From: an uncultured bacterium | GTDB taxonomy: Bacteria > Hydrothermota > Tepidihabitantia > B3-TA06 > CAYQJV01 | Reading direction: 5' to 3' | NCBI GenBank assembly: GCA_964417925.1 | Contig: CAYQJV010000006.1 | Span: 2,232-66,231, forward strand | Length of the DNA: 64,000 bases | Part shown: piece by piece, positions 11,556 through 33,270 of the stretch | Position numbering within the stretch: the first letter of the stretch is position 1 | Layout of the letters: every line of letters begins with the position of its first letter | Position numbers and translations under genes: made by a program | Notes under the pieces: model-generated | The model's database searches: none | Told to the model about the DNA's origin: nothing | The model's input: only the letters and a program-made list of their open reading frames with translations

Positions 11556-11564
11556 GAGGTGCAA

Positions 11565-14108
11565 ATGGAGTATAATTTTACTGAAATAGAAAAAAAATGG
11601 CAGAAGTTTTGGGAAGAAAAAAAGATTTTCAAAACTCCTGAAAGCCCAAAAAAGAAATTCTATGTGCTGGAAATGTATCCTTATCCTTCTGGTGAGCCTC
11701 ATATGGGGCATCTCAGAAACTATGTGGTGGGGGATGTGGTGGCGAGAATAAAAAAGATGGAAGGATATGATATACTGCATCCAATGGGATGGGATGCATT
11801 TGGCCTTCCTGCAGAGAACGCAGCAATAAAAAGAAAAATAAAACCTCAGGATTGGACAAAAAACAACATTGAAGCTTACAAAAAAACATTTAAAATACTT
11901 GGAATAAGTTATGATTGGGAAAGGGAAATAGCAACGTGTTCTCCTGAATATTACAAATGGACTCAATGGATCTTCCTGCTTCTTTATAAAAAAGGACTTG
12001 CATATAGAAAAAAAGAGTATGTAAACTGGTGTCCATCATGTAACACGGTTCTTGCAAATGAACAGGTAATTGATGGAAGGTGTGAAAGGTGTAAAACTTT
12101 TGTAACAAAAAAAGCTTTAAAACAATGGTTTTTCAAAATAACGGAATATGCAGAAAGATTGCTTAGAGATCTTGAAAAGTTAAAAGGTAAATGGCCTGAA
12201 AGAATAATAAAACTGCAGGAAAACTGGATAGGAAAATCAGAAGGAACAGAAATAGTGTTTTTATTTGAAGATAATAAAACAAAACTTCCGGTATTTACAA
12301 CAAGAGCAGATACTTTGTTTGGTGTTACATTCATCACCATTGCTCCAGAACATCCATTAACCCAGCAAATAATAAAGGATTCTCCCAACAGAAAAGAGAT
12401 TGAAAAATATATAGAAGAGGCCATTAAAAAACCGGATATTGAAAGAACCGCAGAAGAAAAAGAAAAAACAGGAGTCTTCACAGGAAAATATGTATACCAT
12501 CCTTTTACAAGAGAAAAGATCCCTGTATGGATAGGAGATTATGTGCTTGCAAGCTATGGAACGGGTATAGTAATGGGGGTCCCTGCCCATGATCAAAGGG
12601 ATTTTTTGTTTGCAAAAAAGTATAACCTTCCCATTAAAGTTGTCATAAAACCAGTGGATGGAAAACTTCCAGAAGAGTTAGAACATGCATTTGAAGAGTA
12701 CGGTATAATGGTAAATTCAGGAGAGTTCTCTGGATTTTCTTCACAAGATGGAATAAAAAGAATTCAAGAAAGGTTAAAAGAAAAAGGTCTTGGTGGGCCC
12801 TCAGTAAGTTACAGAATAAAGGACTGGCTCATATCAAGACAAAGATATTGGGGAGCACCAATCCCTGTTATCCATTGTTCATCTTGTGGAGTAGTTCCTG
12901 TACCTGAGGAAGAACTACCTGTATTGCTTCCAGAAAACATAAAGGATTTTCTTCCAAAAGGGAGATCTCCCTTAGAAGATGTACCTGAATTCATACGTAC
13001 AAAATGCCCAAGATGTGGAAAGAATGCTAAAAGAGATCCTGATACTATGGATACCTTTGTTGATTCTTCCTGGTACTATCTAAGATTTACGGATCCCAAA
13101 AATAATAGAGAGCCGTTTTCTATTGAAAACGCAAAGAAATGGATGCCCGTTGATCAGTACATAGGAGGAGCAGAACATGCTACAAAACACTTGATCTATG
13201 CAAGATTTATAACCAAAGTATTATACGATGAAGGGCTTGTTCCTACCGATGAACCCTTCATGTATCTATTTAATCAGGGACTTGTACACAAAAGATTCTA
13301 TTGGTGCCCAAAATGTCTTGAGATCACAGAAGATGTAGAAGATAAAAAGCATAAAAAATGTGGAACGCAAGTTGAAGAAAAACTTGAAATGATGTCCTCA
13401 TCCAGAGGAAATGTAGTACCCGTAGCTCCATTTGTAAAGAAAAATGGAGCAGATGTTGCAAGAGTAACCATTCTTTTTGCAGGACCTGCAGAAAAGGATA
13501 TGGAGTGGACCGATGCAGGAGTTGAAGGAGCAAGAAGATTCTTACAGAAGATATGGAGACTTTACGATGAAAACATCAAGAAAATAAAAAACATTGAGAA
13601 AATTGAATTTGAAGAACTAACTGAAAAAGAAAAGGAATTATACAGACATCTTCACAAAACTTTAAAGGCGGTGATTGAAGATTCGGATGAATTTCATTTT
13701 AACACTGCCCTTGCAAGAATGATGGAACTTCTTTCGCAAATGCAAGGATTTGAAAATAAAAATTCAGATGTATTCTCCTATGTGGCAAAAAACTATCTTG
13801 TAATGCTTGCTCCCTTTGCTCCCCATCTTGCAGAAGAGTTGTGGCAAAGGATAGGAGAAAAGGAAAGTATATTTACAAGAAGCTTTCCCGAAATAGATAA
13901 AAAAGCATTAATTGAAGAAAAAGTAACAATAGTAATTCAGGTAAACGGAAAAGTACGTTCAAAAATGCAAGTTAAAAAGGACGCACCAGAAGAGGAAATC
14001 TTTAAAAAAGCATTAAATGACGAAAATGTAAAAAAATTTGTAAAGGGTAGAGAAATAATTAAAAAAATATATGTTGACAACAAACTCCTTAACATAGTGG
14101 TGAAATAA
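11565..14108 (+). CDS. leuS: Leucine--tRNA ligase
   Basis: MYPYPSG.PHMGH, GWDAFGLPAENAA, DWLISRQRYWG, DTMDTFVDSSWY, QVNGKVR; SD AGGAGG before ATG 11565. Confidence 0.97.
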   Translation: MEYNFTEIEKKWQKFWEEKKIFKTPESPKKKFYVLEMYPYPSGEPHMGHLRNYVVGDVVARIKKMEGYDILHPMGWDAFGLPAENAAIKRKIKPQDWTKNNIEAYKKTFKILGISYDWEREIATCSPEYYKWTQWIFLLLYKKGLAYRKKEYVNWCPSCNTVLANEQVIDGRCERCKTFVTKKALKQWFFKITEYAERLLRDLEKLKGKWPERIIKLQENWIGKSEGTEIVFLFEDNKTKLPVFTTRADTLFGVTFITIAPEHPLTQQIIKDSPNRKEIEKYIEEAIKKPDIERTAEEKEKTGVFTGKYVYHPFTREKIPVWIGDYVLASYGTGIVMGVPAHDQRDFLFAKKYNLPIKVVIKPVDGKLPEELEHAFEEYGIMVNSGEFSGFSSQDGIKRIQERLKEKGLGGPSVSYRIKDWLISRQRYWGAPIPVIHCSSCGVVPVPEEELPVLLPENIKDFLPKGRSPLEDVPEFIRTKCPRCGKNAKRDPDTMDTFVDSSWYYLRFTDPKNNREPFSIENAKKWMPVDQYIGGAEHATKHLIYARFITKVLYDEGLVPTDEPFMYLFNQGLVHKRFYWCPKCLEITEDVEDKKHKKCGTQVEEKLEMMSSSRGNVVPVAPFVKKNGADVARVTILFAGPAEKDMEWTDAGVEGARRFLQKIWRLYDENIKKIKNIEKIEFEELTEKEKELYRHLHKTLKAVIEDSDEFHFNTALARMMELLSQMQGFENKNSDVFSYVAKNYLVMLAPFAPHLAEELWQRIGEKESIFTRSFPEIDKKALIEEKVTIVIQVNGKVRSKMQVKKDAPEEEIFKKALNDENVKKFVKGREIIKKIYVDNKLLNIVVK

Positions 14109-29549: not shown

Positions 29550-30113
29550 ATGGGCATGTATTTAGTAATGATTATGACCTATCTTACAGATTATGATCTT
29601 GCAGTAGTTGCTGTTATGAATGCCATAAAAGAGTTTCCAAAATTGGACGGTGTAAAAAAAGTACTTGTATATGACGCAAAAGGATATGCCTCTGATGATG
29701 CCAGTCTGTTGGTAAAAAGCTGTATTGCAGATTACTTAAAAAGTAAAGGAATAGAGGTTTACTATCAAACCACAGGAGTAACTCCTGATATGGAAATAAG
29801 ATACGTGGTGCAGGATTTAAAGGTAGTTTATACAAGGGAATTTAGAAAATTTCTAATAGGAGAAAAAATGGTAGAAAGATGGGCACATGCACAGATGGAA
29901 GTATCTCTTATAAAGAACGATAAATTAATAGGTGTTTATAGATTGAGTGGTGATGCAAGAAGTATAGTTCCTAAAAAAGCAGTGATAATTTTGCGTTCTG
30001 CGAGTTTCACCCAAGATTATAGCACCCAACGATCTGGAGATAGTCTTGTAGAACCTCTTTTAATCACTGCGATCATTGGTGTACTTATCTACATTTTTTA
30101 TGTTCCAAAGTAA
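29550..30113 (+). CDS. Hypothetical protein with C-terminal TM helix
   Basis: 187-aa ORF; LVEPLLITAIIGVLIYIFY. Confidence 0.7.
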   Translation: MGMYLVMIMTYLTDYDLAVVAVMNAIKEFPKLDGVKKVLVYDAKGYASDDASLLVKSCIADYLKSKGIEVYYQTTGVTPDMEIRYVVQDLKVVYTREFRKFLIGEKMVERWAHAQMEVSLIKNDKLIGVYRLSGDARSIVPKKAVIILRSASFTQDYSTQRSGDSLVEPLLITAIIGVLIYIFYVPK

Positions 30114-30137: not shown

Positions 30138-32927
30138 ATGAGTAATCAAAGGGCCGGTGATTACAAAAACACAATAATACTTCCTAAAACAAACTTTCCA
30201 ATGAAGGCGAATCTACCTAAAAAAGAGCCTGAAATAATTAAATTTTGGGAAGAAAATGAAATCTATAAAAAGGCTCTTGAAATAAGAAGAGATAAGGAAT
30301 CTTATATTGTACATGATGGCCCTCCATATTCAAATGGACATATCCATGTAGGACATGCATTAAATAAAATTCTAAAAGATATCGTTGTGAAGTATAAAAT
30401 GCTTTCAGGTTTCTACACTCCTTTTGTGCCTGGATGGGATAATCATGGGATGCCGATTGAAAATGGAGTAATAGAAAGATTTAAAAGGGAGAATAAAGAA
30501 ATTACAAGAAAAGATGTAAGAAAAGAATGCAGAAAAACAGCTCACTACTGGGTAGAAATACAGAATCCTGAATTTAGAAGACTCGGAGTTTTTGGGTTTT
30601 GGGAAAATCCCTATCTTACAATGAAACCTGATTACGAAGCTTTAATTCTTGAAACATTTGCAGAACTGGTGGAAAGGGGATATGTGTATAGAAGTTTTAG
30701 ACCCATCCACTGGTGTATACATTGTGAAACAGCTCTTGCAAATATAGAAATTGAATATGAAGAAAAAAAATCTCCCTCAATATGGATAAGATTTCCATTG
30801 AAGGAAGATTCTAAAGAACTATTTAAAGATATTCCAAAAGAAAAAGTATATGCACTCGTATGGACAACAACTCCATGGACAATCCCAGGCAATTTAGCAA
30901 TCACACTACATCCTGATTTTGAATACGTAGTAATAAAAGTAAAAGATGTGTACTATCTTCTTGCACAGGATCTTTTAAAAGAAGTTACACAAAAACTTAA
31001 TATACAGGATTATTGTGTGGTAAAGAGATTTATGGGCAAAGAACTTGAGGGAGAGGTATTTAAACATCCAATATTTGAAAGAGAATCTCCAATAATCCTT
31101 GGAGAGTTTGTTACAAAAGAACAAGGGACTGGATGTGTACATACTGCTCCTGGACACGGTATAGAGGATTTTGAAGTAGGTAAAAAGTATGGTTTAAAGG
31201 TCTTATCACCTGTGGATTCAAAAGGGTATTTTACTGAAGAAGCAGGAGAGTTTGCAGGTATTTCAATCATAGAAGGAGATAGAAAGGTAGTGGAAGCGCT
31301 AAAAAGAAATGGAAATTTATTGAAAGAAGAGGAAATAACACATCAGTACCCGTTTTGTTGGAGATGTCATAACCCTCTTATCTTCAGAGCTACCCAGCAA
31401 TGGTTTATGTCTATGGAACACAGAGAACACAGAAAAAGAATGCTTGAAGCAATTGAAAAGGTAAAATGGTATCCAAAGGAGAGTTATTATAGAATGCGGG
31501 GATTTCTGGAAACAAGGCCTGATTGGTGTCTCTCAAGGCAAAAGTTCTGGGGAGTCGGAATACCTGCATTCTACTGTGAAGAATGTGGAGAAGCAATACT
31601 TTCACCAGATATCATAAGAAAGGTTGCAGAAATTGTAAAGAAAGAAGGATCCGACATATGGTTTGAGGAAAATGTAAATGCAGAAACCCTTGGAATAAAA
31701 TGTCCTAAATGTGGGTCAAAAAATTTAAGAAAAGAAACCGATGTACTTGATGTATGGTTTGACTCCAGCGTAAGTTACATATATGTATCACAAAAGAATG
31801 GCCATAGATGGCCATCGGATATGTATCTTGAAGGTTCGGATCAACACAGAGGATGGTTTAATCTCTCTCTTGTGGTAGGAATAGCAGTTAAAGACTCTCC
31901 ACCTTATAAAAGTGTTTTAACTCATGGTTTTGTCCTGGATGAAAAAGGACTTGCAATGCACACCCATCTTGGAAATGTAATTCCTCCTCAGGAGATCATA
32001 GAAAAGTATGGAGCAGAGATTCTCCGTCTGTGGGCATCCTCTGTAGAGTACTTTAAAGATGTGAAAATCTCTTACGAAATAATTGAAAGACTTGCCGAAG
32101 CTTACAGAAAGATAAGAAACACTATAAGGTTTATATTAGGGAATCTTCATGACTTTGAGAAAAGTAAAAAGATAGGATATGAAGAGTTATCAGCGCTTGA
32201 TAAATACATGCTTCATCGATTACAGGAGATAAAACGAAAAGTAATAAAGGCATACGAAAACAATGAATTTTACAGGGTATTTCATACCATTTATAATTTC
32301 TGTGTGGTAGAATTATCCTCATTTTATCTTGATATACTAAAAGATATCCTCTACACATATCCTGCAGACTCTAAGGAAAGAAGAGGAGCTCAAACCACAA
32401 TGGAAATAATTCTCTGTGATCTATTGAGAATCCTTGCTCCAATAATGAGCTTTACTGCTGAAGAAGCATACTCTCATTTAAAAGACAAAAAAGAAAGCAT
32501 TTTCTTTGAAGATTTCCCTACACCCGATGAACGGTTTGAAAATCCAGAACTTGCAGATGAATGGAACTTAATTGTTGAAATAAGAGATGTAGTATTGAAA
32601 GCTCTTGAAATAAGAAGGAAAGAAGGAAAAATAGGAAGCTCCTTAGATGCAAAGGTATTGTTAAAAATAAAAGATAAAAGAAAGGAAGAAATAGCAAAGA
32701 AATACATAAAGTATCTTCCACAGGTGTTTATAGTATCTCAAGTAGAAGTTGTTGGTACTCTTGATACGGTTCTTGTGGAAGACGAAACTTCAGGAGTTGA
32801 GGTAATGGTGGTAGAGCCAGAAGGTAAAAAATGCGCAAGATGCTGGATATGGAGTAAAACTGTAGGAGAAAACAAAGAGTATCCTGATATATGTGCTAAA
32901 TGTATAAAGGCGGTGAAGGGTGAATAG
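30138..32927 (+). CDS. ileS: Isoleucine--tRNA ligase (type 1)
   Basis: LPKTNFPMKANL, HDGPPY..HVGH, WTTTPWT, DWCLSRQ, YLEGSDQHRGWF, C-terminal CARCW zinc finger. Confidence 0.97.
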   Translation: MSNQRAGDYKNTIILPKTNFPMKANLPKKEPEIIKFWEENEIYKKALEIRRDKESYIVHDGPPYSNGHIHVGHALNKILKDIVVKYKMLSGFYTPFVPGWDNHGMPIENGVIERFKRENKEITRKDVRKECRKTAHYWVEIQNPEFRRLGVFGFWENPYLTMKPDYEALILETFAELVERGYVYRSFRPIHWCIHCETALANIEIEYEEKKSPSIWIRFPLKEDSKELFKDIPKEKVYALVWTTTPWTIPGNLAITLHPDFEYVVIKVKDVYYLLAQDLLKEVTQKLNIQDYCVVKRFMGKELEGEVFKHPIFERESPIILGEFVTKEQGTGCVHTAPGHGIEDFEVGKKYGLKVLSPVDSKGYFTEEAGEFAGISIIEGDRKVVEALKRNGNLLKEEEITHQYPFCWRCHNPLIFRATQQWFMSMEHREHRKRMLEAIEKVKWYPKESYYRMRGFLETRPDWCLSRQKFWGVGIPAFYCEECGEAILSPDIIRKVAEIVKKEGSDIWFEENVNAETLGIKCPKCGSKNLRKETDVLDVWFDSSVSYIYVSQKNGHRWPSDMYLEGSDQHRGWFNLSLVVGIAVKDSPPYKSVLTHGFVLDEKGLAMHTHLGNVIPPQEIIEKYGAEILRLWASSVEYFKDVKISYEIIERLAEAYRKIRNTIRFILGNLHDFEKSKKIGYEELSALDKYMLHRLQEIKRKVIKAYENNEFYRVFHTIYNFCVVELSSFYLDILKDILYTYPADSKERRGAQTTMEIILCDLLRILAPIMSFTAEEAYSHLKDKKESIFFEDFPTPDERFENPELADEWNLIVEIRDVVLKALEIRRKEGKIGSSLDAKVLLKIKDKRKEEIAKKYIKYLPQVFIVSQVEVVGTLDTVLVEDETSGVEVMVVEPEGKKCARCWIWSKTVGENKEYPDICAKCIKAVKGE

Positions 32928-33270
32928 AAAGTTAAAAAAATTTGAAAAACTATTAATAGAAAAGAAAAGAGAGATCCTTAAAGATATTGGGATAGAAGCA
33001 AAAGAAATATTTGAATCACATAAAGAAAGTTCAGGTGAGATATCCTCCTATACTCTCCATATGGCAGACCAGAGTAGTGATACTTTTAGAAGAGAATTGA
33101 AGGCTCAACTTACAGAAGAACAAATGAAAATTTTGAAAGAGATTGAAAGGGCATTACAAAAAATATATGAAGGAAGCTATGGAATATGCGAAAAGTGCGG
33201 AGAAGAAATAGAAGAGGAAAGATTAACCCTTCTTCCTTGGACAAGGGTGTGTTCAAAATGTAAAATGTAG
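32920..33270 (+). CDS. TraR/DksA C4-type zinc finger protein
   Basis: HMADQSSD, GSYGICEKCGEEI..RL..LPW..CSKC. Confidence 0.9.
   Translation: MNRKLKKFEKLLIEKKREILKDIGIEAKEIFESHKESSGEISSYTLHMADQSSDTFRRELKAQLTEEQMKILKEIERALQKIYEGSYGICEKCGEEIEEERLTLLPWTRVCSKCKM

Follow-up and report, generated by a model that had tools for sequence, protein, structure and literature searches.

The window analysed here, a 64,000-nucleotide stretch of contig CAYQJV010000006.1 (assembly GCA_964417925.1) from an uncultured bacterium of the Hydrothermota, carries ileS, the gene for isoleucyl-tRNA synthetase (IleRS). Where class I synthetases have their KMSKS signature, the encoded protein reads AMHTH. The second lysine of KMSKS, hereafter K2, is taught as an essential transition-state ligand of class I synthetases; the corresponding loop of this IleRS is numbered 606-610.

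30138..32927, + strand: ileS, bacterial-type (type 1) isoleucyl-tRNA synthetase of 929 amino acids (open reading frame and TIGR00392 match; the only IleRS-class match of the genome)
30345..30356, + strand: HVGH, the intact HIGH signature, residues 70-73 (by alignment; HIGH loop SNGHIHVGH)
31953..31967, + strand: AMHTH, residues 606-610, at the KMSKS position, with T609 for the second Lys and H610 for the last Ser

The protein matched NCBIfam TIGR00392 at 914.6 bits (cut-off 621.4), residues 20-839 falling on profile positions 2-856 of 861, and phmmer aligned it end to end with IleRS1 of Priestia megaterium (PDB 8c9e; E 3e-267). An AlphaFold2 model built on an alignment of 70 homologues had a mean predicted local distance difference test score of 93.2, with residues 601-620 at 85-90. 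It superposed on 8c9e with a template modelling (TM) score of 0.92 and a root-mean-square deviation of 2.6 Å over 926 columns, and its fold was nearer to IleRS1 (TM 0.92) than to IleRS2 (TM 0.79-0.80). All columns invariant across the 70 homologues were retained (W242, T243, T244, W247, G330, G332, H335, C899, C902, C919, and C922), including the four C-terminal cysteines C899/C902/C919/C922; we take these columns to belong to the CP1 editing domain and the zinc site. The protein is thus like the type-1 IleRS of P. megaterium and Staphylococcus aureus (1ffy/1qu2) in its HIGH motif, invariant columns, four cysteines, and fold. The gene is shown to be a real, single, full-length, and conserved ileS in which all signatures other than the KMSKS loop are intact. 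We class the enzyme as a rare form of one already known and not as a system of a new kind.

Bases 31953..31967 read GCA ATG CAC ACC CAT (A-M-H-T-H) in the context HGFVLDEKGL-AMHTH-LGNVI, and phmmer placed AMHTH exactly on K594-M-S-K597-S of 8c9e, so that T609 stands where the P. megaterium enzyme has K597 and the signature with its catalytic Lys is absent. Codons and alignment together bear out the original prediction that both lysines are gone from this loop and that two His appear in it. A frameshift or assembly error was considered and rejected. KMSKS occurs in neither of the other frames, and the change is therefore a substitution, not a frameshift. Over the 901 bases 31500..32400, there were 0 differences in contigs assembled from public runs of two studies, one of them labelled hydrothermal vent metagenome; this DNA may itself derive from either study, and the two therefore count as one independent source at most. 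No RNA data set was listed as containing the stretch. A metagenome homologue from another source (P0002) reads GI-AMHTH-LGN and is 78% identical (722/923), and the two proteins differ at four positions in residues 557-616, the part of the catalytic core in which AMHTH lies.

With phmmer and PF00133/PF09334, one each of IleRS, ValRS, LeuRS, MetRS, and CysRS was found in the genome assembly, which comprises 109 contigs totalling 1.78 Mb (35% G+C) and is 92.9% complete. Canonical paralogues of ileS and leuS, whose presence would have put a different light on the original prediction, were looked for with phmmer and PF00133, and no second copy of either gene was found in this 92.9%-complete assembly. 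A pseudo-enzyme would be expected to show several decayed signatures and a canonical copy elsewhere; here only the loop was altered, and no second IleRS was found. The neighbouring genes are as follows.

32920..33270, + strand: DksA/TraR-type zinc-finger gene, overlapping the ileS stop (PF01258, E 1.1e-11)
29550..30113, + strand: 187-amino-acid open reading frame immediately upstream of ileS, with no Pfam match and a hydrophobic C-terminal stretch

Distribution of the loop among IleRS proteins

To place the loop among its relatives, we counted, by sequence pattern, the loops of the 120 nearest IleRS homologues, the present protein included. KMSKS was found in 75, AMHKS in 30, AMSKS in four, PMHKS in three, and AMHTH and KMSKT in two each; SMHKS, AMHKH, TMHKS, and KMAKS occurred once each. 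At the two positions in which AMHTH departs from AMHKS, the 105 other full-length homologues were nearly uniform, with K at position 609 in 105/105 and S at position 610 in 103/105. We also read 30 loci from 40 relatives searched; 21 were IleRS, and the others were ValRS (KMSKS, 8) or duplicates. All 13 IleRS1 had xMHKS loops (AMHKS 12, GMHKS 1), seven archaeal-like IleRS had D/EMHKS, and the one IleRS2 had KMSKR.

The loop change therefore has a common part, the loss of the first Lys with replacement of Ser3 by His, and a rare part, the loss of K2. The common part accounts for two of the four changed residues of the loop and is old and widespread (AMHKS in 30 of the 120, xMHKS in 13/13 IleRS1 of relatives, and seven D/EMHKS proteins). 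On the other hand, the possibility set against the original prediction, that such variants are frequent across bacteria, was not borne out for IleRS itself, AMHTH being found in 2 of the 120. The phylogenetic background of the present protein is formed by IleRS1 of the AMHKS type, from WOR-3-like and other bacteria, and by the D/EMHKS archaeal-like IleRS; these share with it the missing first Lys and His3. Unlike it, they all retain the second Lys, and nearly all have Ser, Thr, or Ala at position 5.

A FastTree phylogeny of the C-terminal half placed the present protein and P0002 (both AMHTH) beside P0027 (AMHKH) and P0015 (AMHKS, named WOR-3), within a clade of xMHKS sequences; a second AMHKS clade was placed elsewhere, among KMSKS sequences. 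From this placement, the order AMHKS > AMHKH > AMHTH is plausible. A scan for AMHTHLGN in approximately 185,000 species genomes, a set that possibly leaves out the genome of the window, returned two stretches, both in unrelated short open reading frames. We found no literature on MHKS- or MHTH-type loops in tRNA synthetases and, by title and abstract, no paper that describes a class Ia synthetase whose loop is free of lysine; the supplementary alignments of PMC10485003 may show variants of the IleRS loop.

The IleRS of the class are of three types: type 1 (xMHKS, approximately 930 amino acids), type 2 (KMSKR, 1042 amino acids), and archaeal-like (D/EMHKS-KGN, 976-1073 amino acids). The presence of three types in one class implies repeated replacement of ileS.

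K2 in other class I synthetases

The loops of the other class I synthetases of the genome were read, with the following results.

11559..14108, + strand: leuS, bacterial leucyl-tRNA synthetase (LeuRS), the only LeuRS found in the genome
13389..13403, + strand: MMSSS for KMSKS in LeuRS, followed by Arg (MMSSS-RGN); also in G001, an assembly of the same family
ValRS, CysRS, TyrRS, and TrpRS of the genome: KMSKS
MetRS of the genome: KLSSS; LeuRS: MMSSS; IleRS: AMHTH

LeuRS has lost both lysines, as the original prediction stated, at a site 18.5 kb upstream of the IleRS loop. Among the 120 LeuRS nearest to it, MMSKS was found in 62 and MMSSS in two, the protein itself and one 78%-identical homologue. 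G001 also has an MMSSS LeuRS, and G002, of the same order, reads MMSKS. Across 30 genomes of the class, K2 was kept in 16 LeuRS (VMSKS 12, KMSKS 2, AMSKS 1, MMSKS 1) and lost in 14 (VMSSS 6, TMSSS 3, MMSSS 2, KMSSS 2, KMSAS 1), 11 of the latter having neither lysine. The claim of a parallel loss in two essential enzymes is thus upheld: K2 is lost in IleRS and in LeuRS of one family-level lineage, in each case in 2 of the 120 nearest sequences. Since each loss is rare within its own subfamily, their occurrence together in one small lineage is a real coincidence. The proposed lineage-wide selection on the loop was contradicted by the ValRS, CysRS, TyrRS, and TrpRS of the same genome, which retain KMSKS.

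In none of the 30 genomes read in the class did MetRS have K2 (KLSTS 17, KFSTS 4, PLSTS 3, KISTS 3, KLSSS 2, PMSTS 1), and the solved structure nearest to the MetRS of the genome, the Pyrococcus-type PDB 1rqg, reads KFSTS; the state of this MetRS is therefore typical of its type. The 1rqg enzyme, to whose type the MetRS of the genome belongs, resembles the present IleRS in being a class Ia synthetase without K2 and with Thr at its place, and differs from it in retaining the first Lys and in having Arg directly after the motif.

Directly before its loop, LeuRS has an insert of approximately 32 residues with the pattern C-x-x-C ... H-x-x-C (13290..13388, LeuRS residues about 578-610). It is common to the present genome, G001, and G002, is absent from the other 27 LeuRS read in the class, and resembles the leucine-specific domain in a small, zinc-knuckle form. 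Altered signatures were also seen at the HIGH position of two other synthetases. The only ArgRS of the genome (G000:C12:7452-9032, - strand) reads PL-NVVQ-AR where the nearest solved ArgRS (PDB 3fnr) reads PL-HIGH-AR; in 41 genomes of the class, 22 ArgRS of this type were found, and every one has N/S-[IV]-[VA]-[NQS], with no His at either HIGH position, and keeps an (M/F)SKR loop. The ValRS of the genome (G000:C21:11179-13788, + strand) and those of eight relatives (9/9 readable) have TLGH and not HxGH, the first His being replaced by Thr, with KMSKS retained.

Loops of the Met-His-Thr kind were found outside the bacteria as well. A scan of species genomes for MHxHLGNV gave at least 118 stretches, with at least 17 true class Ia synthetases among chance matches. 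Seven of the 17 were scanned against NCBIfam, giving five archaeal ValRS (NF009687, 856-994 bits) and two IleRS; the remaining ten were assigned by flanking sequence. The loops were PMHTH and PMHSH in Thermoplasmata, AMHKH in Micrarchaeota, AMHRH in Nitrososphaeria and Thermoproteota, and EMHRH in the two IleRS. A scan for MHTHLGN (at least 119 stretches) found PMHTHLGN ValRS in at least nine species genomes, the family of two being checked by NCBIfam and that of the rest assigned by near-identical flanks; in 5/5 genomes checked, the ValRS of this type was the only one above the valS cut-off.

Both scan patterns required His at position 5, and their results suggested that K2 is lost only once that His is in place. 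An unconditioned sample led us to reject this idea. From 60 relatives of one of these archaea, 50 ValRS loci were fetched, four were dropped (wrong open reading frame), and 46 were read. Both lysines were absent in 37 (PMHTS 16, PMHAS 16, PMHAH 2, PMHTH 1, PMHSH 1, PMHSS 1), and the remaining nine read KMSKS; PMHTS and PMHAS, with 16 each, outnumber the four forms with His at position 5. In a large group of archaea, an essential class Ia enzyme thus normally has a Met-His-(Thr/Ala) loop that is free of lysine. K2 is retained in the IleRS read from four of these archaea (PMSKS, QMHKS, and PMHKS twice).

Upstream of HIGH, all 29 full-length K2-less ValRS have PPRY, and Pro occupies the place of the Arg, giving PPP, in 6/6 archaeal ValRS of the KMSKS type. 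The PPRY Arg would fit a relocated positive charge and is a candidate for it in the K2-less ValRS, though the comparison is confounded by phylogeny. The Thermoplasmata ValRS with PMHT(S/H) or PMHAS are like the present IleRS in being class Ia editing synthetases with both lysines absent and a Met-His-Thr core, and each is the sole ValRS. They differ in being another enzyme from another domain of life and in having the PPRY Arg, of which the present IleRS has no counterpart. The frequency of such motifs across class Ia, which the original prediction left to be tabulated, thus divides by enzyme: K2-less loops are common in MetRS (30/30), LeuRS (14/30), and Thermoplasmata ValRS (37/46) and not in IleRS.

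Function of the loop and rival explanations

Judged from its sequence, the protein is a genuine type-1 IleRS that is probably functional although its loop is of a rare kind without K2, and we think it likely that it serves, with its His/Thr loop, as the working housekeeping enzyme of the organism. Its lineage would long have carried the non-canonical AMHKS loop, with the first Lys lost and Ser3 replaced by His; a small family-level clade, to which this WOR-3/Hydrothermia-like vent bacterium belongs, would then have lost K2 (K>T) and exchanged the last Ser for His. The loop would still close over ATP, and the backbone of the loop, the hydroxyl of the Thr, and either or both of H608 and H610 may provide the phosphate contacts of K2, possibly at a cost in rate. 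H608 and H610 are the sole cation-capable side chains in the loop. Every K2 loss seen in the Ile and Val enzymes has His at position 3; in the Leu and Met enzymes, K2 loss goes with Ser at position 3 and usually with Lys or Arg directly before or after the motif. From this pattern, we infer that His3, the Thr hydroxyl, and the backbone could carry the phosphate contacts. By analogy, lysine-free loop chemistry is evidently viable in class Ia enzymes, since loops of this kind with a Met-His-Thr core belong to the sole ValRS of many Thermoplasmata. The suggestion of His-assisted catalysis in the original prediction is circumstantially favoured by the Met-His background of the Ile and Val losses and was overstated beyond that.

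Natural class I enzymes of other subclasses work without K2. K+ reportedly takes the place of K2 in the human cytoplasmic TyrRS, whose loop reads KMSSS (Austin and First, 2002), and certain ArgRS reportedly have a lysine of the HIGH loop in its place (Sekine et al., 2001). A relocated Lys of the ArgRS type was looked for in the present IleRS and was not found. Gains of K, R, or H by its clade in the alignment include H556, H610, and K640 as candidates. Of the 312 conserved columns, 34 depart from consensus in the clade, against a median of 9. Among them are R469K, within WCxSRQ(R)xWG, and G544S, within WFDS(G), both in columns 100% conserved in the 105 other homologues; H406F and K411H are further changes. 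These departures fit either co-adaptation or relaxed constraint.

Several observations weigh against the reading of a working lysine-free enzyme. K2 is otherwise conserved in IleRS: it was present in 118/120 of the nearest homologues, in 145/150 representatives of 50%-identity clusters, in all 79 readable loci of 80 fetched from metagenomes (the nearest 59% identical to the present protein, and the contig encoding P0002 not among them), and in 21/21 IleRS read in relatives. The AMHTH clade consists of two sequences only. No Lys or Arg compensating for K2 in IleRS was identified: none was found relocated in the HIGH loop PPYSNGHIHVGH, where the homologues, too, most often have His two positions ahead of the motif (57/107), and in P0002 both Lys and Arg are absent between 7 residues ahead of the loop motif and 13 residues behind it. 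A further point is that a second ileS can be hidden in the gaps of the assembly. No GluRS/GlnRS gene was found in it with PF00749 and TIGR00464, probably owing to an assembly gap, and since this essential synthetase is absent from a 92.9%-complete assembly, an ileS might be as well. No ileS was found in the assembly of the sister genus (G001), G002 carries a type-2 IleRS, and relatives of the same class use three IleRS types. Finally, analogues of ATP and of the tRNA 3'-end label the two loop lysines of the E. coli IleRS (PMC2695604), which lie at the site for ATP and the tRNA 3'-end; loss of K2 could therefore be seriously damaging.

Relaxed constraint would account for the loop in another way. 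K2 would have been lost by drift from IleRS and LeuRS of a slow-growing, small-genome vent bacterium, leaving slower enzymes in which the histidines are inert. The 34 departures from consensus suit this explanation, as do the non-canonical class I signatures across the class (ValRS TLGH, ArgRS N[IV]V[NQS], LeuRS xMSSS) and the loss of K2 from ValRS without need of His5, PMHTS and PMHAS being the dominant forms there. However, the change from AAA/AAG to ACC opposes the composition of a 35% G+C genome, AMHTH and the core are retained between proteins differing at 201/923 aligned positions, and it is improbable that drift alone would remove K2 twice, independently, within one lineage, when each loss is seen in just 2 of the 120 nearest homologues. 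We regard drift as a rather unlikely explanation. That the gene is a dead or moonlighting copy, the true IleRS (type 2 or archaeal-like) lying in the unassembled 7%, appears very unlikely. The incomplete assembly without GluRS and the three IleRS types of the class leave room for such a copy, and K2-less proteins of decayed appearance do exist: the five among the 150 representatives all have wholly degenerate loops (RTEEE, LLESS, QFSLP, RMARA, KIVLD), and in three the HIGH motif is broken as well (ILPV, HVGI, ITLG). Unlike these, the present protein has its HIGH motif, invariant columns, and four C-terminal cysteines intact, and its core is strongly conserved relative to P0002. Its gene context is ordinary, with the dksA-type gene overlapping the stop, and among the relatives searched, of whose matches 30 loci were read as sequence (21 of them IleRS), none was found to combine a strong IleRS1 match (E <= 1e-100) with an IleRS-type open frame of 980-1160 amino acids.

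Adaptive escape from an adenylate-mimic or mupirocin-like inhibitor, or from chemical acylation of a phosphate-site lysine, would explain why K2 was lost in parallel from IleRS and LeuRS of one lineage. Changes in signature motifs confer antibiotic resistance in IleRS2 (PMC10485003), and the loop of a self-immunity LeuRS is KQSKS, which differs from that of sensitive LeuRS only by Met>Gln (PMC5059758). In PmIleRS1, however, the mupirocin carboxylate bonds to K597, with which T609 is aligned, through the backbone NH and not the side chain (PMC10485003), so that a change of the K2 side chain need not affect this contact. In addition, the MupA and MupB resistance models of NCBIfam gave 375 and 385 bits against cut-offs of 1900, and ValRS, CysRS, TyrRS, and TrpRS keep their lysines. 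Escape of this kind is highly improbable in our view. A broader proposal is that one factor of the cell (an inhibitor, acylation, or the ionic milieu) penalises a phosphate-site lysine, that IleRS and LeuRS lost K2 in response, and that H608 and H610 took over, as would have happened independently in the Thermoplasmata ValRS. The pair might then act as a cationic ligand of the ATP phosphates or hold an extra metal ion. We consider this proposal unlikely.

A working type-1 IleRS with an altered loop, the reading we prefer, would have a counterpart in the IleRS2 with a G/AXHH motif at HIGH (Brkic et al. 2023, PMC10485003), which are natural IleRS still active with an altered class I signature. 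They differ in that HIGH is the motif changed, the enzyme is of type 2, and the change is linked with mupirocin hyper-resistance, whereas the present enzyme is of type 1 and altered in the KMSKS loop. This loop contributes to the pocket for mupirocin, and the variant is therefore relevant to the effects that natural sequence differences might have on the binding of inhibitors. Occurring naturally as a single-copy type-1 enzyme with neither lysine, this IleRS offers a ready test of the dispensability of K2, as do the lysine-free ValRS, LeuRS, and MetRS, and these enzymes allow the replacement of the lysine by histidine, threonine, a cation, or a relocated arginine to be probed. If the enzyme is merely slower, it would illustrate a relaxation of constraint in an extremophile with a small genome. 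Non-canonical class I signatures are commoner in this lineage and in these enzyme families than textbooks imply.

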